Source of the DNA: an uncultured virus (IMG/VR IMGVR_UViG_3300008110_000044)
Lineage: Duplodnaviria; Heunggongvirae; Uroviricota; Caudoviricetes
Reading direction: 5' to 3' (one strand)
Length of the DNA stretch: 20,000 nucleotides
IMG/VR virus record: IMGVR_UViG_3300008110_000044
This document shows positions 2,484-18,800 of the stretch, in pieces; position 1 is the first letter of the stretch; the number at the start of each line of letters is the position of its first letter. The position numbers were made by a program, and so were the translations under genes. The notes under the pieces were generated by a model that saw only the letters and a program-made list of their open reading frames with translations, was not told where the DNA came from and did not search any database.

Positions 2484-3248
2484 TTATTGAAACTGATTTC
2501 CTCCACCTCCACCACCAGCACAGTTCTGAGCTGTATTACAATCTCCAAAAAACCCAGTAGAGTTTCCTTCAGCCATGTGATTAACAACAGGACTGTTATC
2601 AGTTACATATCCATCTGCCACATGCAGGATTAAGTAAAGACCATTAATAAGTACTACTTTATTATTAAATACACCAGCAGCCAAAGGTTCAGGTGAACTT
2701 ACTAAAGTATAGTTATAAACATATCCAGATACAGGATCGCCATTACAATTTTGACAACGTCCTGCATTATAGATATAATATGTAGCAGCTGCTGATTGAC
2801 AGGCTGTACAAGAATCATTTGCAGTTAGACCGGAAAGAACAACATCATAACTAGCAGGTGCTGGACTAAGTGTAGTTTCTACTCTCCAAGAATATCCACC
2901 ATAATAATAGTGTTTACCTGCTGTTAATGTATTTGTAGAGAGAGCAGCATATGCACCATTTGTTCCTATCTGAGCACAACTATTATCACAATCAAATTTA
3001 GATACCGTATAGTAATTATACGTTGGAGGAGTATAACTAACAGTTCCTGAAGCAGAAGTAGTACAAGATCCTGTTGAAGTAACAGTAATAGTTGGATACT
3101 CACTAAATATATCCATTCTATACCCAGCAAGTAATTGTGCTCTTGTAATACCTGATACAAGAGTATTATTATTATTGTCCTTTATTGTAAAAGGACCAGC
3201 ATCTGTTCCTGCTGAAGATAAAGTTACAACTACGTCAAGTACTGGCAT
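2484..3248 (-). CDS. Cys/Thr/Ser-rich putative virion surface protein (beta-rich N-domain + two Cys-containing repeats, poly-Gly tail)
   Basis: 254 aa. N-terminal 'TLSSAGTDAGPFTI...SGITRAQLLAGY...ITVTSTGSC' domain, then two similar units (YNYYTVSKFDCDNSC...LTAG...SCTAC; YYIYNAGRCQNC...LAAG...DCNTAQNC). Ends CAGGGGGGNQFQ. Confidence 0.7.
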   Translation of the reverse strand: MPVLDVVVTLSSAGTDAGPFTIKDNNNNTLVSGITRAQLLAGYRMDIFSEYPTITVTSTGSCTTSASGTVSYTPPTYNYYTVSKFDCDNSCAQIGTNGAYAALSTNTLTAGKHYYYGGYSWRVETTLSPAPASYDVVLSGLTANDSCTACQSAAATYYIYNAGRCQNCNGDPVSGYVYNYTLVSSPEPLAAGVFNNKVVLINGLYLILHVADGYVTDNSPVVNHMAEGNSTGFFGDCNTAQNCAGGGGGGNQFQ

Positions 3249-3259
3249 ATTAAATTAAA

Positions 3260-4198
3260 TTATAAACATGAAGATTGATAAGCTCCTACAGCACCAGTTG
3301 AGGTGTTATAACTGTAGATAGCTGTTGGTGCTGTCCAGGTTGGTCCAATTTTATCTCTTACAAGAGTATTAGTAAAAGGTGTTGTGCCAGCAGCATTTTG
3401 GAATATAGAAAGAACTCCAAATATATTATTAGGATCAGGTAAATAGTATGCCGCTACAGGTGCACCAGCACAGCTTGCACCAACAGTATTACTAAATACA
3501 AAACGTTCATCTGAATATAGTAAACCATTCTGACCTGGCTCTGGTACAAATTCAGCAACTGTTAAAGTACCTAGTGTACAACTAAGTGCACTACCACAAG
3601 CCAAACTAACTGACCAAGCATCAAAAGGAGAATCAGCTACAGTAGAAACTTTTAAACTATAAGTCTTTGCAGAGTTATATGTAAAAACTAAAGTTCCTGA
3701 GTTAATAGTACTTCCTGAAGTTGTTACATCAGTACTATCAGTTACATTAAGTATAGTAAAGGTATTGTACCTAACTGCAGGATTATAAGAAAGTGTAATC
3801 TGGCTACCATTAGCTACGCCAGTAAAATCAATAGGAATATTAGGATAGTTATAAGCTCCGCTTCCAGAATAGTTTCCAGAAAATCCGCATCCACATTTAA
3901 GTTTGTATCCAACACCTGTAATGGTAGTAAGTGTAGCTGTACTAGTAACACTTCCACCACAAGAAGCCTGTACAGATATTGTAAGATCATCACAAGCTGG
4001 AACATTAGATATTGAAACTGGAGAAGCTGTAGGATTAGGAGTAACTTGAGTATATGCACTATCTGCATCTGCCGATTTCTTCCATTTAACTATATATCCA
4101 CCAGATGGTGCTGGGGTAGGTGCAGTAAATGATACGCTTACTGTTCTTGTATCAGAACAAGTAGTACATGAACCGGAGCCTGTTGGAGTAATTGCCAT
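3260..4198 (-). CDS. FN3-like domain-containing virion protein
   Basis: 312 aa. 'VSVSFTAPTPAPSGGYIVKWKK...VSISNVPAC..LTISVQASC' has an FN3 B/C/E/F strand pattern, followed by two further beta-rich domains. Confidence 0.7.
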   Translation of the reverse strand: MAITPTGSGSCTTCSDTRTVSVSFTAPTPAPSGGYIVKWKKSADADSAYTQVTPNPTASPVSISNVPACDDLTISVQASCGGSVTSTATLTTITGVGYKLKCGCGFSGNYSGSGAYNYPNIPIDFTGVANGSQITLSYNPAVRYNTFTILNVTDSTDVTTSGSTINSGTLVFTYNSAKTYSLKVSTVADSPFDAWSVSLACGSALSCTLGTLTVAEFVPEPGQNGLLYSDERFVFSNTVGASCAGAPVAAYYLPDPNNIFGVLSIFQNAAGTTPFTNTLVRDKIGPTWTAPTAIYSYNTSTGAVGAYQSSCL

Positions 4199-4217: not shown

Positions 4218-4688
4218 TTATGCTTGTACACCTAAGCAAACATTTCCTCTCATATATCTACCTCCACTTACTGTACCATCTTGTGCACATACACTACGAG
4301 AAACCTGAGGATTAGTAGCAACATTATATACACTAGAAGCTTGACTTGCACCACATGGCGTATATGTATAAGTTGCTGTATCAAGAAGTTCAAATGTATA
4401 ACATGCTGACGCTGATGATGTAATAGCAAAACTTACAGGATTACTTAGTGAACCACTTCCGCAATCTGCCTGAATAGTTCCTTCTATATTATAACAAGAA
4501 GGAATATTAGTAATATAAATAGGATTACCATATTTATTAGGCTCTGTAGTATAAGCAGTAGCTGAACCTGCAATTCTCCATTTTACTACGTAACCATTTT
4601 GTGGTTCAATAGCAGGAGAAACGTAAGTCAAAGTTAAAGTGCTATACGAGTTACAGCCTGGATCTAATTCTTGTGGAGGAAGTGCCAT
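4218..4688 (-). CDS. FN3-like domain virion protein, paralogous to the 3260..4198 N-domain, with a small Cys domain
   Basis: 156 aa. 'LTLTYVSP..PQNGYVVKWR...PIYITNIPSC..IEGTIQADCG' aligns by eye with the neighbouring gene's N-domain. Confidence 0.7.
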   Translation of the reverse strand: MALPPQELDPGCNSYSTLTLTYVSPAIEPQNGYVVKWRIAGSATAYTTEPNKYGNPIYITNIPSCYNIEGTIQADCGSGSLSNPVSFAITSSASACYTFELLDTATYTYTPCGASQASSVYNVATNPQVSRSVCAQDGTVSGGRYMRGNVCLGVQA

Positions 4689-4700
4689 ACATTATTGGTT

Positions 4701-5330
4701 TTATACTATTGTACCTGTTCCTGATACTTTTACAGGAGATGTCGCAAAAGCTTTAAAGGACTGAGGAAAGTTTTTTAATACGTTTATAGTAAACTGCTGA
4801 TGATTAGACCCTGTAGCTTTTACTACAGTTTGGCCACCACTAAGAGCAGTTGTTGGTGCACTTGATACAGTAAAGGTTGTAGCACTTGGAATAGAAAGAA
4901 CTGTTGTGTTAGCTGCAAAAGCTCCAGTTCCGGCAGTTACTTCTACTGACATTCCTACTGCAATACCTGTTGTTGAACCTACTGTAATAGTTGTTCCTGA
5001 ACTAGTTGCTCCTGCTGTAGAAGTGTATACTGGTCCAAGATCTAAATATGTAACAACCAAAGGAGCTGGATTAGTTCCTGTTCCGGTATTAGTTGCAACA
5101 TAAGTTTGCCTAGTAATAGTTGGACTAACTAGACCATTTAATACTTTATGCAATTTAAACAAGACAGTATTTAGTCTATCACCATTTAAAATACCTAAAG
5201 CAGGTAAATTAGGACCTACAAAATTTGTACAGTCAGCTTTTATTAATTCCTCACAAGGTTCCCCACCAGGACAATCTGGTAAGGTTGTAGCATTTACTGG
5301 AGGACAATCCGCACAAGGATTACATGACAT
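4701..5330 (-). CDS. Cys-rich N-terminal virion/fibre-associated protein
   Basis: 209 aa. MSCNPCADC...C..VGPNLPALGILNGDRLNTVLFKL N-domain shared with 6878..8110. The central 'TTITVGSTTGIAVGMSV...NTTVLSI..ATTFTVS' is a small beta-barrel module common in phage structural proteins. Confidence 0.7.
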   Translation of the reverse strand: MSCNPCADCPPVNATTLPDCPGGEPCEELIKADCTNFVGPNLPALGILNGDRLNTVLFKLHKVLNGLVSPTITRQTYVATNTGTGTNPAPLVVTYLDLGPVYTSTAGATSSGTTITVGSTTGIAVGMSVEVTAGTGAFAANTTVLSIPSATTFTVSSAPTTALSGGQTVVKATGSNHQQFTINVLKNFPQSFKAFATSPVKVSGTGTIV

Positions 5331-5341
5331 ATTTTAACTTT

Positions 5342-6868
5342 TTATAAATTAATGTTTGATTCAAAATCTGCACTTAAACTAGTTACTGGAGGACAAGGAA
5401 CATATCCACAATCAGTACTATTACTTTCATATAAGTTTCCTGCTCTAGTTGTATTATAAGTTGCAGAACAAGGATTAGTATCTATTTCTTGATAATGCTT
5501 ATTAACACCTACACAATTATAGTATTCAGATATACTTCTTTGTACCCAATTGGCAGTACTACTAGTTAAACTTAAACTAGAAGCTGTTGATGTTTCGCTA
5601 CCACAAGTTCCTGTAACAACAACTCTATAAGTATATGTTATACTTGTTTCATTAGCAGCTAGAGTATAACTTGCAGATGTAGCATTGGTTATATTATTCC
5701 ACGAGTCACCATCGTTTCTTTGCCACTGATAGGTCAAACCTGATCCCGTTGCTACAACAGTAAATGTTGCATTAGCTCCATCACAAACAGTTTGATCATT
5801 AGGCTGTTGTGTAATAATAGTATTTGCTGTTATAGAAAGAGTACCTGCTGCTGATATTATTTCAGGACCACACGTACTATTTACTTTTGCTCTATACTTC
5901 TTACTGCTATCTCCAGATGCTACAGTAAAAGAATAAGTTCCTGCTGTAGCACCTGTAATATTGTTATATGTAGTTCCACCGTCAGTACTTACTTGCCACT
6001 GATAGGTAACATTTCCACCACCTGCTGTGACTCCAAAGGTTGCAGTACCACCAAGACAAGCATTATTATTTGCTGGCTCTACTGTAATATTTGTATCAGG
6101 TAGCAAACTAACTGTTACAGCATTTGTATCGACAGTAGCACATTCGTTTGTAGCTTTTAATTTATAGCTTCCTAAGTTAGTACCAGCATTTGCTATTACT
6201 AAACTCTGTGTAGTTACACCAGAATAATCACCAGTATTTGTAAGAGCTACAGTACCTTTGTACCATTGATAACTACAACCAACACAAGTATATACAGCTG
6301 TTAGAGTAATTGTTTGATCATCACAAGCTGCTTGGTTTATAGGCTGTGTAGTTACCACAGGACTATTAGGTTTACTTGTAAAGGATACTGCTGAACATGC
6401 TTTTGTTATAGTATCAGCTTTAGAAATAACCTTTATCTTATATGCTGTTGATGCAGTCAACCCGGTAAAACTACCAGTTACTGTTGCTGCAGCAACTTTT
6501 GTTTGAGTAGATATAACAGCATCAGCATTGCTTAAAAGCTGAATATCATAGTTATTTACATCCCCTCCAACTTGAGCAAAAGAATAGTTTACTATTCCAT
6601 CGCAAGCTGTTGTTACTGTAACTGGAGAAGGACAAGTTAAACTTGCAAACTCTATTACAGCTGAATCCTTTGGAAAACCATCAGTACAAAAACCTTTTAT
6701 CTTAAACTGTTGAATCTTATTATCGGCAACACCTACAACAGAGTAAGTAGTTGTTGAACCATCAAGTGTGGCAATCAGATTCCAAGAGCCACTATATTTA
6801 GGTTTAAGATATAGTTCCTGTTGGTATGTTCCTGCGGCAACACTCCAAGTCAATGAAAAATTTGCCAT
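5342..6868 (-). CDS. Multi-Ig/FN3 virion surface protein (2 FN3-like + 3 I-set Ig-like domains + Cys-rich tail)
   Basis: 508 aa. FN3 motif 'FTGLTASTAYKIKV'. Three Ig repeats of the form 'IT.QP....C.G..ATF.V.A.G..TYQWQ...G......YR..V...CG'. C-terminal 'DTNPCSATYN...ESNSTDCGY' module. Confidence 0.85.
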   Translation of the reverse strand: MANFSLTWSVAAGTYQQELYLKPKYSGSWNLIATLDGSTTTYSVVGVADNKIQQFKIKGFCTDGFPKDSAVIEFASLTCPSPVTVTTACDGIVNYSFAQVGGDVNNYDIQLLSNADAVISTQTKVAAATVTGSFTGLTASTAYKIKVISKADTITKACSAVSFTSKPNSPVVTTQPINQAACDDQTITLTAVYTCVGCSYQWYKGTVALTNTGDYSGVTTQSLVIANAGTNLGSYKLKATNECATVDTNAVTVSLLPDTNITVEPANNNACLGGTATFGVTAGGGNVTYQWQVSTDGGTTYNNITGATAGTYSFTVASGDSSKKYRAKVNSTCGPEIISAAGTLSITANTIITQQPNDQTVCDGANATFTVVATGSGLTYQWQRNDGDSWNNITNATSASYTLAANETSITYTYRVVVTGTCGSETSTASSLSLTSSTANWVQRSISEYYNCVGVNKHYQEIDTNPCSATYNTTRAGNLYESNSTDCGYVPCPPVTSLSADFESNINL

Positions 6869-6877
6869 AGGTGTTCA

Positions 6878-8110
6878 TTATGATAAGGTTGCAGTAACGC
6901 CAGTAATAATAGGACAAGGTGGAACAACAGTCTTCGTTGCAGTTTTATTACAAGTCTGACCACTCTTCACAAGACATCCTTCAACAGTTACTGTATAAGT
7001 AAGTGAAGGATTCAAGCTTGCTCCAGATACTGTAAATGTTACACCATCAGCATCTGAAACAGCTGCTACTAAATCCACATATCCAATAAAGGTATTATTT
7101 GCAGAGTCTTTAATAGTTACTTTAGATCCAAGTTGATTACAGTTTGTAAACCCAGAAGGAACTGTTAGTAAACCTTGGAAGAATAAAGTAACTTGAGTTC
7201 TAGCTTCGTTTGCAGCAGCATTGAAGTTAAGAACAAACTGAGAACAGTCAACAACGTTTGTAAGACTTTTAAGATCCGCAATAGCAGCTCTCATATCACA
7301 AACAGTAATCCAAAGATTCTGAAAAGACTGAGCCATATTAGATACTGTAGCATTCCAGCCTGTAAGACTACTTAGTGTACCAGTTTGACTTAAAGCAGGT
7401 TGTGCTCCTAGTGCAGCACACTGTTGAGCAGCCGCAGCTGTAAGTGAAGCATTAGTTCCAAGTACAGCTCTTAAGTTACAATACTGAGCTTCTAGTTCAT
7501 CAAGAACCAGATTCATGTCAGTAGGAACATTAGGAGTAAGAATACAGTTAGGAGTTACTTTAGGTAGAGCAGCAGCTGTTGCATTTTCAAGAACAGTTAC
7601 TCTTGTACCTAAACTAGTAATCTGAGAACCTTGAGTAGTTACAGTTGTCTTTAAATCACAAAACTGATTAGCAAGTCTTAAAGTTGCTGATCTGTGCTGT
7701 AACTGAGTAATAGTCTGACCTGTTGCAGGATCTGTAAACTGTAAACAAGAAGGAAGATTAATATTAGGTTCTGTATAAGAACCACCACCGCCAGGACTAA
7801 TAGCATCAACTTTAGCATTTAGTCCACAAACCTTCTTAACAATATAATCCAATACTGCTAACAGGGTCTTCGTAGTTGGAGCAGGGCCAACAGAAGAGGC
7901 AAATGAGACCAGGCAAGATAAGTCCAGGGAGGACAGCCCAAGCTCTGCCTGTAAGGTACAGAGCTTTTCTGCTACCTTGTAGACTACGTCCGAAACAGTG
8001 TCACCGTTGCAGAGGTTAAGGCAGGCAATATCAGGGCCTTGCCAAATGACACAGTTAGAAGAAACAGGAGAACAACCCTGATCAGCAGTATTGGATTTTA
8101 CAGGTAACAT
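6878..8110 (-). CDS. Cys-rich coiled-coil/fibre-like virion protein with C-terminal FN3-like domain
   Basis: 410 aa, 18 Cys by my count. N-domain CVIWQGPDIACLNLCNGDTVSDVVYK, repeated C..helix..C-x-L/M units, coiled coil 'ITSLGTRVTVLE', FN3 signature 'LNPSLTYTVTV'. Confidence 0.7.
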   Translation of the reverse strand: MLPVKSNTADQGCSPVSSNCVIWQGPDIACLNLCNGDTVSDVVYKVAEKLCTLQAELGLSSLDLSCLVSFASSVGPAPTTKTLLAVLDYIVKKVCGLNAKVDAISPGGGGSYTEPNINLPSCLQFTDPATGQTITQLQHRSATLRLANQFCDLKTTVTTQGSQITSLGTRVTVLENATAAALPKVTPNCILTPNVPTDMNLVLDELEAQYCNLRAVLGTNASLTAAAAQQCAALGAQPALSQTGTLSSLTGWNATVSNMAQSFQNLWITVCDMRAAIADLKSLTNVVDCSQFVLNFNAAANEARTQVTLFFQGLLTVPSGFTNCNQLGSKVTIKDSANNTFIGYVDLVAAVSDADGVTFTVSGASLNPSLTYTVTVEGCLVKSGQTCNKTATKTVVPPCPIITGVTATLS

Positions 8111-8134
8111 AATTATTTGGGTATCAATGAGTTA

Positions 8135-8632
8135 TTAACAATCTACAACATTAGCTTCACCAAAGAGATCTTGTAGTTTAGCTTTAAGTTTACCATAACC
8201 AAATGCAAAAATATCTACATCTTCAGCTTGTGACATATCTGGTACAATAGAGACAGTAGTTTGTTCTACATCCTGCTCTTGCATTTCAGTAACTATTCTT
8301 GTTTCCATGATTGGATTACCATCTGCGTCATTAGATCCAGTAGAAACTTCTCTTTCTACCTGTATAGGAACCATCTGTTTTACAATAGTTGTATTAGATA
8401 CTTCTTTAGTCATAGGGCTATAAAGATTTTCTCCAATCTGTTGATTACGAGCAGTTCCCATTGTAGGAGAAGGATTACGACCTAATCCAGGAATATCATT
8501 TTCTGACATATACAGTTCAACACGGAAATCAGCATTACCATATTTACTAATACGATAGTCTGAAATTCTAACATAAGCTTCTGAAGTTATACCTTTATCG
8601 GTACCAATTTGTGTAGTGATCTTAAGTGCCAT
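8135..8632 (-). CDS. Small phage tail-associated protein (possible fibre assembly factor)
   Basis: 165 aa. 'MAL......T..GI....AY.RI' start and 'Y.KLK.....VVDC' end resemble small accessory proteins found beside phage tail-fibre genes. Function inferred from context only. Confidence 0.55.
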   Translation of the reverse strand: MALKITTQIGTDKGITSEAYVRISDYRISKYGNADFRVELYMSENDIPGLGRNPSPTMGTARNQQIGENLYSPMTKEVSNTTIVKQMVPIQVEREVSTGSNDADGNPIMETRIVTEMQEQDVEQTTVSIVPDMSQAEDVDIFAFGYGKLKAKLQDLFGEANVVDC

Positions 8633-9346: not shown

Positions 9347-10882
9347 CTAAGCAAATCCACCACCACCTGGGCCAGGACCTGTACAACCAGAACTATATAA
9401 ATAAGCTGGACCGAAGTTCATACTATAAGCACAGAAGGTATCACCAGGCTGGAAGTAAATATATTGACTGTTACCGCTACAGTCTGTATAAGATACATAA
9501 CCGTAATCAGAAACTGAATATGTACTGCAAACTTGACAGTTTGGAGAGTTATATTCTACTGTTGTATATGTTCCACAACTTCCATCTGCATAAACCCTAT
9601 TCCAAGTTGAGCCATCACAGAATTGTTCTAAAAGAGTACCGTTTGCAGGACAAGACGCATTTCTCACATAAGTTACAGATGAATATGGTCTTACATTAGT
9701 AACAGCATAAAAACTAGCTCCGTTGTCCCCCGAGACATACATAGCTCCTCTGACGCTATCATTATTAGCAGCATAGATTGTTGCTGCATTTGAACTTACA
9801 GCAAGTCCTGTCCAAGATCCATTAACATTATTGTTATTAGGATATATACCTGTATAGCCCCAAGACCAAGACCAGTTGTTATAGTTTACAGCTCCACCAA
9901 TAAAGTTCTTTATAATAAAACTAATATTACCATAAGCAGCTCCTGGTTCTATAGTAGCTACTGTATTATTGCCAAGATTATCTGTAGCAATATTAGAAAA
10001 GTTAAATGGACTACTTATATTTCCTATACCAGGTACATTAATAGTAATTGGCACTTGAGCAAAAGTAGCTCCACTATCTGTTGATAAATAAAGATGCGAG
10101 TTATTTCCTGCTATCCAGATTACTGATCCACTAGCATTCATTGTAATAGACGTCCATGAAATACCTGACGTACCTGTATTAGATTGTGTCCAACTATTAC
10201 TTGCACTTATCTGTGAAAGTGATGACCTCCAAACTGTACCATCAGCAGCAATGGCTACCATAAGGGTTCCTGAAGTATTCATAGCAACACCTTTCCAGTT
10301 TCTTATACCTGCACTTGTTGAGGCTCTAAAATTATCACCAGCCGGAAGTGGTTGAATATTATGATAAATATATGCAGAAGTACCTACTACTACATAATAA
10401 CCATTTTGACTCATCGCAAGACAAGTTGGGTTATGTGTACCAGATATACCATTTGATATATTATTAAAAGTTGCTCCTGAATCTGTAGAAAGCTCTACTT
10501 TTCCACCACCTTCGGGTATAACAAGATTTCTAATAGCTACTATATAACTACCAGTACTATTAGATTTAATATCTATCCAATCTCTACCTAATGTATAAAA
10601 AGGATTAAAGCCTGTGCTATTTTCACCTCTTGATGCTTCAATTATTCCTGTACCGTATCCAGATGTCGTAGCTAAAACACTACCAGGACCTATTGGACAA
10701 ATGTTATTAATTGAAGAAACTAGACCATTGCTAACTGTAATATAGTTACTACCTTGTGTAAGATAGTTAAAGGAAGAATATATACCATTTGGTGCTGCAG
10801 TAGTCCTTTCAGGATCTGTCCAAACAGGACATCCCACATTAAGAGTAGAACAGTAAGAAAATAATATTGCGTTACTTGCCAT
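9347..10882 (-). CDS. Asp-box (BNR) beta-propeller virion protein with Cys-rich terminal modules; putative receptor/glycan-binding protein
   Basis: 511 aa. Asp-boxes STDSGATF (x2) and SGDNGASF. Blade repeats 'W..IAMN.SG..I.A'. Cys modules at both termini. Ends GCTGPGPGGGGFA. Confidence 0.8.
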   Translation of the reverse strand: MASNAILFSYCSTLNVGCPVWTDPERTTAAPNGIYSSFNYLTQGSNYITVSNGLVSSINNICPIGPGSVLATTSGYGTGIIEASRGENSTGFNPFYTLGRDWIDIKSNSTGSYIVAIRNLVIPEGGGKVELSTDSGATFNNISNGISGTHNPTCLAMSQNGYYVVVGTSAYIYHNIQPLPAGDNFRASTSAGIRNWKGVAMNTSGTLMVAIAADGTVWRSSLSQISASNSWTQSNTGTSGISWTSITMNASGSVIWIAGNNSHLYLSTDSGATFAQVPITINVPGIGNISSPFNFSNIATDNLGNNTVATIEPGAAYGNISFIIKNFIGGAVNYNNWSWSWGYTGIYPNNNNVNGSWTGLAVSSNAATIYAANNDSVRGAMYVSGDNGASFYAVTNVRPYSSVTYVRNASCPANGTLLEQFCDGSTWNRVYADGSCGTYTTVEYNSPNCQVCSTYSVSDYGYVSYTDCSGNSQYIYFQPGDTFCAYSMNFGPAYLYSSGCTGPGPGGGGFA

Positions 10883-10885
10883 ATT

Positions 10886-11653
10886 TTAACATTGTATACA
10901 TCCACAGTTACCGTCACCACCACAAGCGTAATAAGCATTATTTACATCATAACAGTTGTCATAAGTATATGCTATTAAAGAATATGCTTTAACAACATAA
11001 GTAGTATTGTACTGAACTGTAAATGTATGACTTAAACTTTGTAAGTTAGGACCATTATAAGGATACTTCCATAATGTCTGATTAGTAATTAGTGTACCAT
11101 TAGCGTATATTTGAAGCTTACCTATACCAGGTGCTTCCCATCCCCATGTAGATCCTTCTGGAGCATTGAGTCCAAAGTTTGCTTGTACAAGAACATTATT
11201 ACCTACTTTTATAGAAGAACTCATTTGTGGACTATATTGTGGTCCTCCAAAAAACATACCATCTAAATTATTAGTAGGATCTAGTCTAAGAATATTACCA
11301 TTTACATAACCAAATAGATCACAGTTAAGATAGGGATTACCTTCTTGATTCATCTCAAAAGTTATAGAACTTGACCTAATAGCATTAATCTGCTCATATT
11401 TAGGCAGCCAATTTGGAGAAGGTCCTATTACACCAAAACCATTCTCGTCTGTATAGTTATATAAAGGAAGATAATTCTCTCCGGCTGGTGTACCCGTAGG
11501 ACCAGCATATACCCAGACTCTGTCATTTATTTCTTTGCCTGTAAGACAACGATTAGTATTAGGGATACTCTGTCCGGCTTTTATGGCTAGGAGTTTATCA
11601 TTAACCATGCCTTGAAGCTCTTGTCCTGTGACAGCAAAACCATTACTTCTCAT
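10886..11653 (-). CDS. Putative fibre-tip/adaptor protein coupled to the upstream S74 fibre
   Basis: 255 aa. Start overlaps the fibre gene end by 11 nt. Beta-sandwich-like C-half ('HTFTVQYNTTYVVKAYS'). Cys-rich tail ACGGDGNCGCIQC. Confidence 0.6.
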   Translation of the reverse strand: MRSNGFAVTGQELQGMVNDKLLAIKAGQSIPNTNRCLTGKEINDRVWVYAGPTGTPAGENYLPLYNYTDENGFGVIGPSPNWLPKYEQINAIRSSSITFEMNQEGNPYLNCDLFGYVNGNILRLDPTNNLDGMFFGGPQYSPQMSSSIKVGNNVLVQANFGLNAPEGSTWGWEAPGIGKLQIYANGTLITNQTLWKYPYNGPNLQSLSHTFTVQYNTTYVVKAYSLIAYTYDNCYDVNNAYYACGGDGNCGCIQC

Positions 11654-14600
11654 CTTCTAGCTGTTTTATTCTGGCTTCTAATTCCTGTACAGCTTTAATC
11701 AAAAGACCTATAGTGCTATTAGCATCCATTACATTTTTGTCTTTTGTAGAAAGTTCTACAGGAGTGTCTTCCGCAATAAAACCTATGCGTCTGTTTTCCA
11801 GATCTGTTTTATAATAAAAGGAAACTACATTTGTTCTTTTCAGAATATCTAATGCTGATTCTGTGTAAGGGTTAACATCTGTCTTTAGTAATCTACTAGA
11901 AGACTGAAAGAAACCAGCAGCTGTTAAGTTAGCACTAGCATCTCTTAGAGCAATAGTGTCAGCAGTTGAAGCTGTAGTAATTGTTTTAGTTACACTAAAG
12001 GTTGTACCACTAAGTGTCAATCCTGCCCCAGCTGAATAAGTTGTATTAGTATCTGTATCAGCATCGTCACGCCATCCAGGATTACCATTAGCATCTGTCT
12101 TCCAAACTTTATTGGCTATTGCTCCAGGAGCTGTTACATATCCATCTTGTGTTTTAGTATTAGCCTGCCAAGTATTAGTGTCAGTATCTGCGTCATCTCT
12201 CCAACCTGGATTACCAGCACTATCAGTCTTCCATACTTTGTTTGCTACAGCACCTGGTGCTGAAACATAACCGGCAGCATCTTTTGTATTGGCTACCCAA
12301 GTATCTGTATCTGCATCTGTTCTCCAACCAGGTACTCCATCAGCATCAGTTTTCCAAACCTTACTTGCGTTACCAGTACCTTTAGTTACATAACCATCAT
12401 TATCTTTAGTATTTGCTTGCCAAGTGTTCGTATCTATATCAGCACCCCACACCGCTGTACCATCTGCTGACCATCTAAGTATTTCACCAGCTGCTCCACC
12501 AGCAGGAATATGTTTATTACCAGCTGTTGTTGGATGCACATAAACAGTATCTGTGTCTGCATCATCACGCCATGCTGGTGCACCAGTTCCATCTGTCTTC
12601 CATACCTTATTTGCATTACCTGTACCTGCTGCTACATAGCCAGCATTATCTTTACTATTAGCAACCCATGTATTATTATCAGCTGCCCATGTACCATCCG
12701 CTCTTAAAAACTTTGCCTGATCTCCTGCCGCAGGCCCTGGAACAAGACCACTAGACCCCGCTGCACCTGCTGATGCTCCGCCAAATACAGAATAAGTAGT
12801 ACCTACTGGAATACCCCATGTACCATTACCTTGTAAAAATCTACTCTGTTGACCTGCAGCTGGTGCTGGTACAAAACCTATTGACCCAGCAGCATCAGCT
12901 GTTGCACCACCAAAAACACTAGTTATTAAAGCTACCCAAGTAGCATCCCCTCTAAGAAATCTACCTTGCTGCCCAGCTGCAGGGCCTGGTACTAATCCAG
13001 ATGTACCTGCATCATTTGCAGTAGCTGCACCAAAAACACTATAAGTGGTGTCAGCATCTACTCTCCAAGCTGGATTACCGTTTGCATCAGTTTTCCATAC
13101 TCTATTAGCTACTGCACCTGGAGCAGCAACATATCCTGCATCATCTTTGGTATTAGCTATCCAGGTGTTTGTATCTGTAGGTGTAACCCAAGTACCATCA
13201 CCACGTAAAAACTTTGCATTATCAGCTAGAACTGCTGGAGCTGGCACCAAACCATTTACTCCTGCAGTTACTACACCACCTGGGTTAGTAGCTGCTGTAA
13301 ATACCGCATAAGTTGTGTCACTAGAAACAAACTGGAATACCCCAGCAGTGGTTTCTGTAATAGCAACATTTGTACCTGCACGTAGTGTGATATTTCCTGT
13401 TCTATACGTTGTGCCACCGGTTGTACCATCAGCATCTATTCTTCTGATCTGAGTTATAGTATCAGTATCTACATAAGTAGAATTAATTGTTATCTCATCA
13501 CCAGATCTTCCTAAAGTTACATTAGTACCTGCAACAAGAGTAACATCATCTGTAGTACTATCTGACCCAGTAAGTCTTATTACTTTCTTTCCTGTTGTAC
13601 CATCTGCTGCACTAACTGAGTAAGTAGTATTTGTATCTGTAAAAGAAGAAGCTATTTGATATACTCCTGCTACAGGTTCTGTAATAGTAACATTGTTTCC
13701 AGGTCTTAAAGTAAGATCCCCGCTTCTATAGGTACTAGGATTAGTAGCTCCATCTGAATCTACTCTTCTTAATCTTGTTACCGTGTTTGTATCTATGTAA
13801 GAAGAAGCAATAGTTATTTCTGTGGCACTAGTTCTTGTAATAGTAACATTATCACCAGCTGTTAAAGTAATATCTGAGTTTACAGCATCACTTCCAGATA
13901 GTCTAATCTTTGTTGTAGCATTAGGAACAGTAAGAGAGTAATTAGTATTAGTATCTGTGTAACTAGAAGAAAGTACACCATTTGCATCAATAGAAAGGTT
14001 TGTACCAACTTTGATACCCCCAAGCACTGAGGCTGAGGCAGTTGGTAAAACATAACTATTACCTGCTGATAGAATTCCGTCTGCGTCTATAGATAAGTTG
14101 GCACCTACTTTAATACCTCCTAATACAGAAGCAGAGGCTTTTGGCAAAGTATAAATAGGTAAGGTTTGCCAAGTTTTATCACCTCTCCAATATTGTGCTG
14201 TAGTTCCTGCAGTAATAGCAGGTTCTTTAGTACCTATCAAAGTTGTAATGGTTGTGGCAAAATTAGCATCATCACCTAAAGCAGCTGCCAACTCATTAAG
14301 AGTATTAAGAGTTGTTGGGGCAGAGTCTACTAGATTAGCTACTTGTGTAGTAACATATGTTTCTGTGGCATAACCTGTAAGATCTGTAGAGTAATTAGGT
14401 ATATTCAATACTCCGTTTACATATGTAGCGGCACCGTTTGTTCCAGTAGTTGTAATACTAATAGCAGCTCTTGCTCTAGCTGTTGTAAAGTAAAGGTTAC
14501 CACTTTCCGTTATCTGACTAGTCAGATAGTCTCCTGTCTGACTAGTTACTGCACCAATTCTTCCAAATACAGAAGTTACCGCACTTTCTGACGCGGTAAG

Positions 14601-14750
14601 CTGATCTACAGTAGCAGTAGATATCTGACCATCTGGACCAGCTACTAATACGGTTGTACTAGTGCCAGGTATAGTAGGTATATTTTTTAGATATACCCCT
14701 GACGGTAGATGCAGATTATACTGACCATCTATATTAAAGAAGTTATCCAT
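11643..14750 (-). CDS. Long repeat-rich tail fibre with C-terminal intramolecular chaperone (peptidase S74) domain
   Basis: About 1035 aa from ATG 14750 (the track starts one codon earlier at TTG). Fibre motif 'APTTLNTLNELAAALGDD.NFATT', many G/T/D-rich repeats, C-terminal 'SSRLLKTDV...RIGFIAED...LLIKAVQELEARIKQLE'. Confidence 0.9.
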   Translation of the reverse strand: MDNFFNIDGQYNLHLPSGVYLKNIPTIPGTSTTVLVAGPDGQISTATVDQLTASESAVTSVFGRIGAVTSQTGDYLTSQITESGNLYFTTARARAAISITTTGTNGAATYVNGVLNIPNYSTDLTGYATETYVTTQVANLVDSAPTTLNTLNELAAALGDDANFATTITTLIGTKEPAITAGTTAQYWRGDKTWQTLPIYTLPKASASVLGGIKVGANLSIDADGILSAGNSYVLPTASASVLGGIKVGTNLSIDANGVLSSSYTDTNTNYSLTVPNATTKIRLSGSDAVNSDITLTAGDNVTITRTSATEITIASSYIDTNTVTRLRRVDSDGATNPSTYRSGDLTLRPGNNVTITEPVAGVYQIASSFTDTNTTYSVSAADGTTGKKVIRLTGSDSTTDDVTLVAGTNVTLGRSGDEITINSTYVDTDTITQIRRIDADGTTGGTTYRTGNITLRAGTNVAITETTAGVFQFVSSDTTYAVFTAATNPGGVVTAGVNGLVPAPAVLADNAKFLRGDGTWVTPTDTNTWIANTKDDAGYVAAPGAVANRVWKTDANGNPAWRVDADTTYSVFGAATANDAGTSGLVPGPAAGQQGRFLRGDATWVALITSVFGGATADAAGSIGFVPAPAAGQQSRFLQGNGTWGIPVGTTYSVFGGASAGAAGSSGLVPGPAAGDQAKFLRADGTWAADNNTWVANSKDNAGYVAAGTGNANKVWKTDGTGAPAWRDDADTDTVYVHPTTAGNKHIPAGGAAGEILRWSADGTAVWGADIDTNTWQANTKDNDGYVTKGTGNASKVWKTDADGVPGWRTDADTDTWVANTKDAAGYVSAPGAVANKVWKTDSAGNPGWRDDADTDTNTWQANTKTQDGYVTAPGAIANKVWKTDANGNPGWRDDADTDTNTTYSAGAGLTLSGTTFSVTKTITTASTADTIALRDASANLTAAGFFQSSSRLLKTDVNPYTESALDILKRTNVVSFYYKTDLENRRIGFIAEDTPVELSTKDKNVMDANSTIGLLIKAVQELEARIKQLEDEK
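12055..14150 (-). repeat. Mosaic of intragenic fibre repeat classes
   Basis: Approximate spans: 2x 'LP.ASASVLGGIKVG.NLSIDA.G.LS' (13965-14150); 4x 'DT...AG/PG.NV.I' in ABAB alternation (13320-13960); 4x 'G.VP.PA.....FL.G/ADG/ATW'; 5x 'NTW.AN.K...GYV......KVWKTD..G.P.WR.DAD'; 1x 'YVHP..AGNKHIPAGG...ILRW'. Confidence 0.85.
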
Positions 14751-14762
14751 CAAAGAATTTTA

Positions 14763-14955: not shown

Positions 14956-15816
14956 TTATGATGGTGTTCTACCTTGTAAAGCTGCTCCAATAGTACTAAG
15001 ATCTCCAGTTGATAAATAAGAATTATATATTGCTACATAACTAAAGTCTGCATTTATCCAGTTGTTATAACGTAATCCTAAAAAGAATCCCCAACCACTA
15101 AGACCTGTTATACTACAAGAAGTAGAAGCTCCTGCTCCTGAATAAAGCGTTGAGTTTTTATATACATGAACTTGTTGGGAAGTTCCGTTAGATCTTAAAA
15201 AATAAGTTGACCATGCTCCTATGCCTGTATTAGAAGGATAGTTTAAATAATCAAATCCATTGCTTCCACAGTTAAGATCTCTCCATACTGAAGATCTACT
15301 ATTATCTCCATCTAAGTACCATGATAGACCTTGAGTGTCACTACCATGACCAAGTATACCAGGATAGTTACCATTATAAGAATAACCTTTAGGTTTCATA
15401 TGTACTACAAAAGTAAAAGATGCAGTACCTGTTGGTTTAAGAGCATCTGGTATTCTTACTGAAAGTTGAGCACTAGATCCAGGTAAATTAAGAAATCCAG
15501 ATCCACTATACCCACTAACTGTTGTAGCAGATCCATTACCAGTACCTGTACTAAAGGTTCCATTATTACCATTACCGCTAAGATCCGCTATACTTGTTCC
15601 ACTATTAGAATAGTAACTAGTTCTTGAAAAGTCAAAAATAAGCTGGGGAGAACCATAAATATAAGCTCCAGTACCAGTATAACCATAGAACTCACTCATA
15701 GCATCTGGTGTAGATTTACCAGCTGCAGCACTAAGTGTTCTCAGACTATATGAACTACTGCCTAGTTCTGTTTTAATTTGACTTATGCTTATAGCACCAC
15801 TACTTTGTAAGGCCAT
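14956..15816 (-). CDS. Putative fibre-tip adhesin: conserved N-terminal docking segment + LamG/ConA-like lectin domain
   Basis: 286 aa. N-terminus MALQSSGAISISQIKTELG...MSEFYG is typical of genes directly after S74 fibres. LamG-like signatures 'FDF.....Y..SGT.I.DLSGNGNNGT' and 'VAIYN..LS'. 17-nt overlap with the fibre gene. Confidence 0.75.
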   Translation of the reverse strand: MALQSSGAISISQIKTELGSSSYSLRTLSAAAGKSTPDAMSEFYGYTGTGAYIYGSPQLIFDFSRTSYYSNSGTSIADLSGNGNNGTFSTGTGNGSATTVSGYSGSGFLNLPGSSAQLSVRIPDALKPTGTASFTFVVHMKPKGYSYNGNYPGILGHGSDTQGLSWYLDGDNSRSSVWRDLNCGSNGFDYLNYPSNTGIGAWSTYFLRSNGTSQQVHVYKNSTLYSGAGASTSCSITGLSGWGFFLGLRYNNWINADFSYVAIYNSYLSTGDLSTIGAALQGRTPS

Positions 15817-18800
15817 CTAATTTATTTTTAAGTTCTTCAATTTGTTTCTGTTGTTCTTTAACGGCTTCAATCAATACTGCAGTAAGACCTTGATATCTTA
15901 CTGACATGAATCCATCATCATTAGTTCTAGCCAACTCAGGCAGTACTTTTTGCACCTCTTGGGCAATCACACCTACGTCCTCTTTAATATTAGCAAGGGG
16001 ATCTATAGTATTCCAGTCAAATCTATAACCAGTAAGACTCATAACTTTTGAAAGAGCATTAGGAATTATTTCCTTAACTTTCTTTAGTCTAGCATCAGAA
16101 GGAGAACCATAAGCCACAACATCACCACTAGATGTAAGAGTACCAGATGCATTTATTTCAAGTCTTATTGAACTATTTACACTAAATAATAATTTATCAC
16201 TAGAACCATTATGGGTATATGCTATACGACCTACTATAGCATTATCAGAAGTATTAACAAAATGCAAACCTTGGTCATATCCGTCTGGACTAGAAAACAA
16301 CAAATAAGCATGACTATTTCTAGTGATATGAACAACATTATTCATATCACTTGTTGTATAACTTGCACTACCACTATTACCATGTATTCTTAACTGGCAA
16401 TCCCATTGAGAATCTGTATCTCCTATAGTAGTTTTACCTGTTGAATGCTCATATGCAGCATATGTCCTAACGCCAGGTTCTCTAAATATAAAGTTATCAT
16501 TGCTATGATACCATGCCCAGTCTCTATTATTAGAAGCTCTAGAACGTATAGTATAATCATTACTTGGATGCTTAAACACCGCAGCTTCAGTATCTGAACT
16601 TCTAGCTGTTACATACACACCACCAGCAGGTATCTCTAGTTGACCGTTATAAACAATTGCATTCTGTCTTCCATCAGTAGATATCCACTGTGTATGATGT
16701 GGAGAACGAGGCATATCTACAGAAGAACTACTATGATTTGTATAAGTAAATGGTCCGTGAGTCATACTCAAATCTGAATACTTAACTTTTACTGTATAGT
16801 ACTTTCCTGCACCACAAGACGGATTAACTATTAGTTTTAAAACATAGTTATTTGCAGGGTCATCACCATAAACACCACGCAATCCATATTGGTTAGTACC
16901 ATTCCATAGACCAACATTATTATCAGAACCTGCTGATGCTACCAAGTTTGACGATATTCTATCTCCTACCCATACTATCCACTTTTTATACTCAACATAT
17001 CCTGCAGGAGTATATCCACGATGTGAACCAAATACTTCAATTTCTATAAAACTTCTGTAACTTCCTCCACCACTTAGCGTTCCAATAGTGTATATCCTTG
17101 CTTTTTCTGTACATGAAGGATAATCATCAGGAGTTGATATATTACCACTATATTCAGTAGTAGGAACTGTACCTGTACTATGCCTTAAATAAGTATTTGT
17201 ATCTAACCCCCCAGAAGATATAGTTACATTTAATGCTTGCGATATTGTTAGTCCTAAAGCATTATCCCCCCTTCTAATCTCATAGTTTTCTGAATTATAT
17301 GTACCTACTAACCATTTATCTACTCCATTATGTTTATATCTTACTCTAACATCTGCACCGCTTGTAGTATCCATTGAAATCAAGCAGTTATCAGATGATA
17401 TTAAATTAAGAAGTCCATAACCACCAACATGAGATCCTTTAACATGAAGTATGCCATTTGCTGATGTATCACCTATTGCAAATCTTCCTCCGTTGTTAAT
17501 ATAGTTTGTTTCTGTAGAATTAGCTGTAAAGTCATGCGTAGTTGTACCGTTAGACTTAAGTTTTATGTAGCCTACTTCAGAGCTACCTGAAGTTCTATCA
17601 CCCATTTCAATAAATGTATAACTTGGACCTGCCATGTTAAGTCTTGGAGAATCAAGACCCGTACCGTTTATTGTTAAAGTTCCTGTAGTTGTAAAGTTTA
17701 CATAAGACCTAACCTCATCTGATTTAAAGCCTATAATCTTAGTCCATCCTGATGAATATATACCAAATGCTCTACTAGAACTTGTATGAATACCCATTCC
17801 GTATCTTCCAAATACTCCATTTGTAGTATTTGCTTTAATAATACCTTCATCCCATCCATTAGAAGTATCAGCTGCTCCAAATCTTACATATGGCCATTCA
17901 GTAGTATCAGCATTTGTAAATGGAAACTGTACATAAGTGCCACTTAAATATACACTACCGTTAAATGTTACATTAGAACTTGTCGACGCTCCTCTTCCTG
18001 TAACTGTAGCTAAAGTATCAGTCAAAGAAGTTATAGCATATGAACTTATATTACCACTATGTAATAACCTATACCAACTACCCCAAGTACCCGCACTATC
18101 TCTATGACGTAAAGCAAATATACCAGTAGGATCTACATCAGTATAAAATTGTGTTACATATCCACCACCTGTCCATCTCCAAGCTTGAATATAACCATCT
18201 CCACCACCAGTAGAAGATGTTACAATATAACTAGCTGTTTGATTAAAACCCGGGAATGCATCATTTTCTGCAACAGCTGTGGTGTTCATCACTTGAGAAC
18301 CTGTAATACTAATACCCCACGTACCACTTGCTCCACCACCTGTTAAAGTTGGAGAGTAAGAGTTATAGTTTGCTTCATGAAGTACAGCTCTATATACAGA
18401 ACTAATATATAACTTTAAAGAACCAATACTAGTTGTTCCTTCAGGTGCAGCACTTGTTGCATATATTCTTAATTCATTAGTTGGTTGATGATAATATACT
18501 CTAGCAGAACCACTACCAGCACCTTGATAGTATAATCTAAAGTCATTAGAATCAGTATTATAAATATTTACAGCACCTGATAATGTAATAGCCGTGCTTG
18601 TTGTTGCACCACGACCAGTTACAGATGCCAAAGTATCTGTTTCTGTGTAAGAACTTAACTTACTATTTAACTGAGTTTGAATAGAGCTAGTAACACCTTT
18701 TACATAACTAAGTTCTGTAAGAGATGGATATGTTGCTGTCAAAAGAGAACTAATAGTACCACCACTCCAATACGCAATAGTATCATCGGTACCTGATAAA

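Follow-up and report, generated by a model that had tools for sequence, protein, structure and literature searches.

Can a single domain of a phage fibre be divided between two genes? The question is raised by a stretch of 20,000 nucleotides (nt), here called the window, from an uncultured virus of the Caudoviricetes (IMG/VR record IMGVR_UViG_3300008110_000044). In it a protein of 410 amino acids (aa), which we call the stalk, ends with what looks like the first strand of a fibronectin type III (FN3) domain, and the next gene, for a 508-aa protein, opens at what looks like the second strand of such a domain. Our analysis makes it quite likely that the 410- and 508-aa proteins are separate chains joined by one FN3 domain built from both, with the stalk as donor of strand A and the 508-aa protein as acceptor. 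The argument draws on the conservation of the cut between the genes, the register at which the acceptor enters the Pfam fn3 profile (positions 15-16), the exact spacing across the cut, the free tail of the donor, a predicted complex, Cys counts, the co-occurrence of the two kinds of end and the existence of fused forms. Every gene of the window is on the minus strand, and the features that matter first are the following.

6878..8110, minus strand: gene of the 410-aa donor protein, an open reading frame (ORF) for a Cys-rich N-terminal region, helices, a C-terminal beta-sandwich and the donor tail.
6881..6922, minus strand: putative donor tail, residues 397-410 (PPCPIITGVTATLS), an FN3 A strand preceded by Cys399, assigned from models and conservation.
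6869..6880, minus strand: gene boundary in the A-B loop, read from the sequence as TAA, TGA (6877-6875), ACA CCT, with the ATG at 6868.
5342..6868, minus strand: gene of the 508-aa protein, an ORF for an FN3 lacking strand A, a complete FN3, three immunoglobulin (Ig)-like domains, a small Cys-rich module and a C-terminal tail.
6635..6868, minus strand: acceptor domain FN3a, residues 1-78, B strand first, with a single Cys61 (6688-6686), assigned from Pfam fn3 matches of orthologues and from the model.
6365..6634, minus strand: complete domain FN3b, residues 79-168, with its own A strand CPSPVTVTT, assigned from an alignment and a Pfam match below cut-off.

The 410-aa protein ends ...GQTCNKTATKTVVPPCPIITGVTATLS (in a shorter view, ...KTVVPPCPIITGVTATLS), with the codon of Cys399 at 6916-6914 and the stop TAA at 6880-6878. 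The 508-aa protein starts MANFSLTWSVAAGTYQQELYLKPKY (shorter, MANFSLTWSVAAG), and the FN3 B strand, MANFSLTW, runs from its very start. Both ORFs are in the same frame with TAA TGA plus 6 nt between them, and the in-frame stops two and three codons upstream of the 508-aa start leave no room for a pro-segment in the window. The junction resembles an ordinary gene boundary, since spacings of 3-24 nt are typical here. A first-pass annotation of this DNA, made from the letters alone, had claimed that the 410-aa protein ends in an orphan copy of an A strand, that the 508-aa gene starts at a B strand with no A strand before it, that the complete internal FN3 of the 508-aa protein begins CPSPVTVTT with its Cys at 6634, and that this protein likewise ends in an orphan strand, CPPVTSLSADF. 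Our re-reading agrees on each point, with all coordinates right, and the last of these strands matches the donor pattern used below.

What are the first residues of the 508-aa protein? Their assignment as an FN3 domain that lacks its first strand comes through orthologues. On the Pfam fn3 profile (length 84, gathering score 25 bits), the 862-aa orthologue P0035, which is 50% identical to the window protein over 172 residues, scores 31.9 bits with residues 3-68 on profile positions 15-79, and a 184-aa protein of the related locus L001 scores 40 bits with residues 3-72 on positions 16-82. Acceptor ORFs in general open 1-4 residues ahead of the B strand. In the following domain, FN3b, Cys79 (6634-6632) and Cys158 are invariant in the alignment. 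Further along, residues 170-456 match the Pfam families Ig_7, Ig_3, PKD and I-set, and the PHROG matches of the 508-aa protein are to tail protein and Hoc-like families. Besides P0035, its homologues include P0057, P0062, P0143, P0066, P0086 and P0107.

Is the cut peculiar to this one sequence? The stalk family has 362 confirmed relatives in viral contigs, and our comparisons use 80 of these loci (70 unique). The cut recurs in 21 of the 80, where a homologue of 405-417 aa, 40-67% identical, is followed by a B-strand-first ORF; this is the split whose fate in relatives the first-pass annotation had proposed to check. The short stalk homologues end in PCPxxxxVxAxL, PCPIISSVTATLT or a near variant, and the next ORF opens M(x)xxTLxW, as in MNVTLAWTPG, MASFTVTW, MASATINW and MATLTINF. 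The gap from stop to ATG is 1 nt at 17 loci, 6 nt at two, 3 nt at one and 8 nt at one.

These relatives decide whether the two ORFs might after all yield one protein, by read-through, frameshifting or a variant code, or whether the double stop might be a sequencing error or a pseudogene lesion. Taken alone the window would allow it, as its ORFs share a frame and the read-through translation gives a seamless FN3. However, two different stops, TAA and TGA, would have to be read, and TAA ends 13 of the 16 window genes (TAG ends the other three). Among the relatives the second ORF lies in frame +1 at 17 loci, 0 at three and +2 at one, so all three frames occur and there is no fixed frame relation. 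In distant relatives (L028, L031, L042, L049, L055, L065, L098, L099 and L103) a gene of ~180 aa stands between the donor and acceptor genes, and therefore no recoding could fuse the two there. The stalks of these distant relatives are ~490-515 aa long, the 410-like part being followed by one complete FN3 and then a tail such as PCPPPTSVTAVIATI, and the acceptor gene beyond the intervening one starts MAPVPATITVNFTS... In addition, 18 representative clusters (50% identity) have been independently called as B-strand-first proteins. A single product is thus very improbable for the window, and the comparative data exclude read-through, frameshift, variant code, sequencing error and pseudogene decay as general explanations. 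The double stop had been taken to mean separate polypeptides and no artefact, and the cut kept in 21 loci, the varied frames and the intervening genes bear this out.

The 18 clusters came from a search started at the acceptor. We searched 1.84 billion representative proteins with a profile of the second protein and obtained 9736 matches at E <=0.001, of which the best 150 were examined. The unit is internal in 132 of these, which are long multi-FN3 proteins. The other 18 match from residues 1-5 at profile positions 1-6, their N-termini consisting of M, 1-4 residues and the B strand. The donor pattern stands at the end of 12 of these 18 B-strand-first representatives, compared to 1 of the 132 others. 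In viral contigs a scan with the single acceptor protein gave 0 confirmed relatives, and a scan with a 3-row acceptor alignment gave 17 loci, a count that is blind to fused forms because its seed patterns included the start Met.

Fused forms are found among the stalk homologues longer than 560 aa, which have a contiguous FN3 at the position of the cut and then other domains. In those of 735-756 aa (L032, L041, L044, L053 and others) the stalk continues into a complete FN3, which is followed by a region with a DxSxS-like motif, and no acceptor-type genes come after them. In L032 the matches to fn3 (19.5 bits) and VWA (22.8 bits, cut-off 23.8) both fall just under their cut-offs.

On the donor side, the tail looks like a free end with a conserved sequence. 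An AlphaFold2 (AF2) monomer model of the 410-aa protein, made from 41 aligned sequences with a mean predicted local distance difference test (pLDDT) of 74, has helices at 39-56, 83-102, 139-176, 199-217 and 259-283, after a conserved, Cys-rich N-terminal region (SSNCVIWQGPD), and a beta-sandwich at 297-395 with pLDDT ~90. Residues 396-410 are coil in this model, and the last 10-residue block has a pLDDT of 57. A Cys occupies the Cys399 column in 36 of the 41 aligned stalk rows. The donor-like pattern lies within the last 24 residues of 21 of the 24 stalk homologues of up to 430 aa (background: 180 of 20000 random 24-residue segments from ORFs of the same loci), of 9 of the 29 stalks of 431-560 aa and of 0 of the 24 longer than 560 aa.

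A tail of this kind could also be an inert leftover of gene fission or module swapping, with the six-strand domain stable alone or held by other contacts. Phage fibre genes recombine at domain borders, monomer models leave the C-terminal tails of both the 410- and the 508-aa protein disordered, and in longer homologues the counterpart of the 508-aa tail is simply an internal linker. However, among homologues that are 40-67% identical, a leftover of 12 residues would not have stayed constant in sequence, in exact length and in the Cys ahead of it. Nor would it co-occur with acceptors that lack strand A, and here the loci differ sharply: an acceptor-type ORF lies downstream in 28 of the 37 unique loci with a donor-like end but in 4 of the 33 without one (Fisher value 6.7e-08, which is not a probability because the loci are related).

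If the two pieces make one domain, the distance between their landmarks should be that of an intact domain. Counting from Cys399 to the stalk's end and from Met1 to Trp8 of the acceptor, the Cys-to-Trp spacing across the cut in the window is 19. In the intact FN3s of giant proteins, 54 of 56 matches have a distance of 19 or 20 from Cys to B-strand Trp, for example CNIPSGLSSSAVSNLAATLSW. These giant proteins of 1400-7300 aa (P0002-P0034 and others) have the FN3a-FN3b pair as their repeat unit, with 8-42 matched stretches each; one of them, P0003, has 30 Pfam fn3 stretches and a type IX secretion system (T9SS) sorting domain at 24.5 bits, below the cut-off of 27. By its sequence the phage unit of ~185 aa looks like one giant-protein repeat cut out at the A-B loop. 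The cysteines have a similar logic. In 30 of 31 aligned sequences the only Cys of FN3a lies at column 61, and the complete FN3b has two, Cys79 ahead of its strand A and Cys158. That the lone invariant Cys of FN3a has no partner in its own domain also speaks against an idle leftover. If, as this pattern suggests, the Cys before strand A pairs with the F-G-turn Cys of the same domain, a disulfide of FN3a would be intermolecular.

Structure prediction was then applied to the two pieces directly, using residues 288-410 of the stalk and residues 1-85 of the 508-aa protein, with three runs and 3 controls. The interaction prediction score from aligned errors (ipSAE) was 0.67, 0.66 and 0.67, against 0.01 for the best control. 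Of 157 solved complexes 116 reach the ipSAE mark, as do 2 of 215 mismatched pairs, counts that hold only roughly here because our own alignments were used for the complex. The three runs agree on at least 98% of contacts, and the partner has a pLDDT of at least 88. The predicted interface consists of stalk residues 396-410 (plus 336 and 371) against residues 2-14 and 53-76 of the 508-aa protein. The best predicted residue pairs, 406:7, 405:8, 408:5 and 407:6, are those of the antiparallel A-B pairing of FN3, and the contacts 402:69, 405:72 and 407:74 lie on the side of strand G. A seven-strand FN3 with strand A at its N-terminus is present in neither chain by itself at this joint, and appears only as the two-chain composite of the predicted complex. 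In the same model Cys399 of the donor touches Cys61 of the acceptor with an expected error of 1.0 Å; since it adjoins the sole Cys of the acceptor, a disulfide lock is possible. Both the docking geometry and the proximity of the cysteines are properties of the model.

A complex that is confident and specific against its controls speaks against an inert tail, and together with the conservation, the co-occurrence and the lone Cys it makes the leftover explanation improbable, though less so than a single read-through product. The central proposal of the first-pass annotation, that the C-terminal strand completes the A-less FN3 of a partner, is well supported in silico for the 410-aa tail and FN3a. 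Two outcomes that it had named as fatal, no confident docking of the peptide and no conservation of the terminal CP-strand motif, did not occur for this tail: the complex is confident relative to controls and the motif is kept among the 410-aa homologues.

The joint could then work as follows. The 410- and 508-aa proteins would be translated separately, with their tight spacing suggesting coupled expression. The last 12 residues of the stalk (IITGVTATLS after Cys399-Pro400) would give strand A, and residues 1-78 of the 508-aa protein would give strands B to G. The tail would zip antiparallel to strand B at the open sheet edge of the six-strand domain, touching strand G, and the 508-aa protein would then stack on the terminal beta-sandwich of the stalk like one nicked tandem array. 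A Cys399-Cys61 disulfide probably forms once the particle is outside the cell and would lock the joint. Across the family this would amount to a modular fibre kit, in which a conserved stalk of the 410-aa family bears the plug and variable downstream proteins bear the socket at their N-termini; its purpose may be that distal modules can be exchanged as whole genes. From the model and the comparisons we infer that the 410-aa tail binds FN3a of the 508-aa protein in vivo.

Several points weigh against this account. The whole case consists of sequence comparison and structure prediction. Pfam fn3 (PF00041) does not match the first domain of the 508-aa protein at all, so that the FN3 label of residues 1-78 rests on orthologues, and on FN3b it reaches 21.2 bits over residues 95-152, below the gathering cut-off of 25. 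The pass of the complex may reflect mere likeness, because the partners are two halves of an FN3 and this fold is abundant among solved structures; the model speaks to the fit of the pieces as an FN3 domain, and the binding, tightness and stoichiometry of these copies lie outside its reach. The regular expressions behind the co-occurrence counts are crude: they miss acceptors visible in L049, L055 and L073 and call false donors in L036 and L063. There are also true exceptions, L062 having an acceptor-type ORF without a donor end and L039 a donor-like end with no acceptor in the examined stretch, and donors need not be matched by equal numbers of acceptors, one donor gene and three acceptor genes being present in each of L022 and L035. 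The disulfide would depend on an oxidising setting. Finally, the placing of the 410- and 508-aa proteins in the tail-fibre region of the virion is drawn from neighbouring genes only.

Does the chain continue beyond the 508-aa protein? Three further features come into play here.

5345..5395, minus strand: C-terminal tail of the 508-aa protein, residues 492-508 (CPPVTSLSADFESNINL), a candidate second donor strand, from the donor pattern and its coil state in the model.
4218..4688, minus strand: 156-aa candidate acceptor with an FN3-like N-domain from about residue 16 (TLTLTY), from alignments.
3260..4198, minus strand: 312-aa candidate acceptor with an FN3-like N-domain whose B strand begins at about residue 18 (RTVSVSF), from alignments and profile comparison.

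The 508-aa protein ends ...DCGYVPCPPVTSLSADFESNINL (shorter, ...GYVPCPPVTSLSADFESNINL), with Cys492 at 5395-5393. This tail could, as the first-pass annotation had also proposed, be a second plug, either for the N-domain of the 156- or 312-aa protein, giving stalk, shaft and tip, or for another 508-aa copy, giving a polymer. We regard such an extension of the two-chain joint as possible but somewhat doubtful. In its favor, the tail keeps the inward-facing spacing of the 410-aa tail, C-x-x-V/I-T-x-L/V-x-A-x-F/L, and the close homologues P0057, P0062 and P0143 end alike. All nine relatives of ~185 aa among the 18 A-less representatives have a Cys-led donor-like tail (eight match the regular expression and P0111 is a near miss), and this ~185-aa unit corresponds to one FN3a-FN3b repeat of the giant proteins, with the cut in the A-B loop. 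A monomer model made from 8 sequences (mean pLDDT 77.5) shows residues 484-508 as coil (pLDDT <50) beside an Ig domain that is modelled with confidence. On the other hand, the matching segment is internal, with further domains after it, in P0035, P0066, P0086 and P0107 (4 of the 8 long-type proteins aligned), and the window's tail may be a linker left by truncation. A small Cys-rich module lies directly before this tail (residues ~441-492, 5393-5548; W..R.I..YY.CVG..K.YQ.IDTN.CS.TYN.T..G.LY..NS.DCG). It occurs once in the 508-aa protein and as several tandem copies in the longer homologues P0086 and P0107; no family matched it, and the model has moderate confidence there.

The two candidate sockets would be of a second acceptor type. 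The 156- and 312-aa families open 2-10 residues before the B strand (MANQLTINFTAASPAPSGGYLVRYW; M..C..YKTLTIQY...GYTVQWK), and both keep an invariant Cys at the F-G position, features that favor a second joint. The 156-aa family has a short variable lead with an invariant Cys12, its FG-position Cys76 is invariant, and some orthologues have only 7 residues ahead of the B strand. Orthologues of the 312-aa protein open at the B strand (MANQLTINF), with the window copy having a 17-residue lead. In locus L024 an acceptor of the 156/312 type (MATLTINF) comes right after a donor end of the 410-aa family, 3 nt away, which again favors the reading. In contrast, the leads of 15 and 17 residues on the window's 156- and 312-aa proteins might supply a first strand of their own, and the profile comparison of the 156/312 domain type with FN3a of the 508-aa family gives the same register but a weak match (probability 20.6%, E 0.0011). 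Structure models are unlikely to tell related plugs apart.

One could go further and see the locus as a chaperone-free, disulfide-locked fibre kit, with one plug on the 410-aa stalk, sockets on the 508-, 156- and 312-aa proteins, and a second plug on the 508-aa protein (on the 184-aa unit in relatives). This full version we think rather unlikely on present data. If it were true, chains, branches and even bead homopolymers could be built, receptor-binding tips could be swapped as whole genes, and uncultured phages of probable Bacteroidota hosts would possess a widespread, natural tag-and-catcher system. A related observation is that L022, L035 and L098 have a single donor-ended stalk gene followed by two or three different B-strand-first genes, and these gene orders suggest alternative or multiple tips per stalk.

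How does the proposed joint compare to known systems? In chaperone-usher pili (Pap, Fim) the edge strand of an Ig-like subunit is supplied by the terminal extension of its neighbor, and the tip, adaptor and terminator subunits differ in being donor, acceptor or both (PMC9046445). The likeness is that separate proteins are joined into a fibre by a short terminal strand of the neighbor. The differences are several. The missing strand in those pili is the C-terminal G, filled by an N-terminal donor, and in the window it would be the N-terminal A, filled by a C-terminal donor. As described in PMC9046445, the pili also need a groove-filling periplasmic chaperone and an outer-membrane usher, and Pfam found no such chaperone or usher families among the 15 window proteins scanned. 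The fold is that of pilins in the pili and FN3 in the window proteins, which are encoded by phage genes and may have a disulfide lock.

In type V pili (FimA, Mfa1; PMC13655056, PMC8512630) of the Bacteroidota, a C-terminal strand fills the groove of a neighbor at the place where the N-terminal strand is absent (PMC9046445). Residues 396-410 of the stalk take the A-strand position in a similar way in the model, and the phylum may be shared, the weak hints to the phage's host also pointing to Bacteroidota. However, in type V pili proteolysis of a lipoprotein precursor takes away the N-terminal strand and so opens the groove (PMC9046445), whereas the window gene simply starts at the B strand. The Pfam and PHROG scans gave no sequence relation of the window proteins to type V pilins, whose fold is of the FimA type and not FN3. 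The analogy to pili drawn in the first-pass annotation is thus good for the donor-strand principle and fails for family membership, as the defining features of those pili are absent.

The nearest published phage precedent that we found is the baseplate tripod of the Lactococcus phage Tuc2009. There a 25-residue C-terminal hairpin of BppU completes the sheet of domain 2 of BppA, and the composite resembles a titin-type (Ig/FN3-like) domain (PMC4742702). In both cases a C-terminal extension completes an Ig-like sheet of another phage protein, for the window in the model only. The Tuc2009 donor is described as a hairpin, whereas the window donor would be one strand of ~10 residues, with the acceptor at the very N-terminus and the gene boundary in the A-B loop. 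The window system also differs from the Tuc2009 one as described in that it recurs as a kit, with several sockets, sometimes two plugs, and a conserved Cys pair. No sequence relation to BppU or BppA was found by Pfam, PHROG or tblastn against 50,697 phage records.

Two other cases are more distant. In contractile injection systems and phage tail sheaths, terminal strands extend the sheets of neighboring subunits, which is strand exchange in another phage-derived machine, but the account describes a homo-oligomeric mesh that augments complete domains and not one domain divided between two gene products (PMC13266070). TasA of Bacillus subtilis forms a donor-strand exchange fibre without a chaperone-usher machine (PMC9674648). 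It differs in being a homopolymer of the bacterial biofilm matrix and in its fold. A full-text literature search, which covered few subscription journals, turned up no account of an FN3 that is shared out between phage genes. The assembly principle of donor strands is already known from pili and Tuc2009, and the FN3 cut between phage genes would be, on the present comparisons and models, a new variation of it. Engineered split FN3 and tag-catcher pairs exist.

If the joint is real, it is a new way to couple phage fibre proteins, with one FN3 divided between two genes and a possible covalent lock. It would account for the way genes are ordered in a large group of uncultured phages, given the 362 stalk relatives in one viral collection, and for the replacement of distal, probably receptor-binding, parts as entire genes while the stalk is left untouched. 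For annotation, gene pairs that resemble a frameshifted or broken FN3 gene would be intact, and short ORFs that start 'mid-domain' would be real. For engineering, a 12-residue tag and an 80-residue partner with many evolved variants would be candidate orthogonal connectors.

The setting of the two genes is that of a phage structural cluster with fibre genes and a downstream DNA repair exonuclease gene, as read from Pfam and PHROG scans. Peptidase_S74 chaperone domains occur in two large fibre proteins, at 11643-14753 and 15800-19966. The 410-aa protein matched no Pfam family and no PHROG family. Against the 50,697 phage records, neither blastn of 5300-8200 nor tblastn of the 410-aa protein gave a match; the phage matches of the neighboring exonuclease are all <27% identical, and no cultured relative was found. 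When viral structures were searched for the fold of the 410-aa model, the one real match was to an uncharacterised protein of an uncultured virus, the others being generic FN3/Ig sandwiches that offer no functional lead. The prokaryote genome collection holds the 410-aa family on only 9 contigs, all of metagenome-assembled genomes, of which 4 are labelled Bacteroidota; the best match is to an uncultured Lishizhenia at 41% identity. These contigs, and the below-cut-off T9SS domain in the giant FN3 relative, are a weak hint in the sequence data that the host belongs to the Bacteroidota.

One more gene lies between those of the 508-aa protein and the 156-aa candidate acceptor.

4701..5330, minus strand: 209-aa protein with a stalk-like N-terminal motif and no donor or acceptor feature.

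This protein has the N-terminal motif C..W/F.GP.l..l.l.NGD.l..V..K in common with the 410-aa stalk, and BLASTP aligns stalk residues 16-50 with its residues 30-64 at E 4e-05. The motif may mark an anchor domain common to two different fibres, to judge from these sequences. The position of the gene is kept in relatives. In relatives that include L028, L031 and L042, those with genes of ~180 aa, the gene after the stalk always opens with a very Cys-rich lead, MACNCSKCSSKCGC...

Other neighbors are mentioned for completeness. The 254-aa protein (2484-3248, minus strand) starts MPVLDVVVTLSSAGTDAGPFTIKDN, similarly to an ORF in L025 that starts MQAIFVKLNTAGGDTGPFMIYSN, and its N-terminal domain is of another kind than the FN3 acceptor type. 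Between the fibre genes and the stalk, a 511-aa protein (9347-10882, minus strand) has a Gly-rich C-terminus and a weak match to BNR/YCF48-type beta-propellers (20.2 bits, cut-off 27). The fibre protein at 11643-14753 (minus strand) has 1036 aa, a TTG start that overlaps the next gene and its Peptidase_S74 intramolecular chaperone domain at the end, and it contains many copies of a motif of ~40 residues, …NTKD.AGYV.APGAVANKVWKTDA.GNP.WR.DADTDT….

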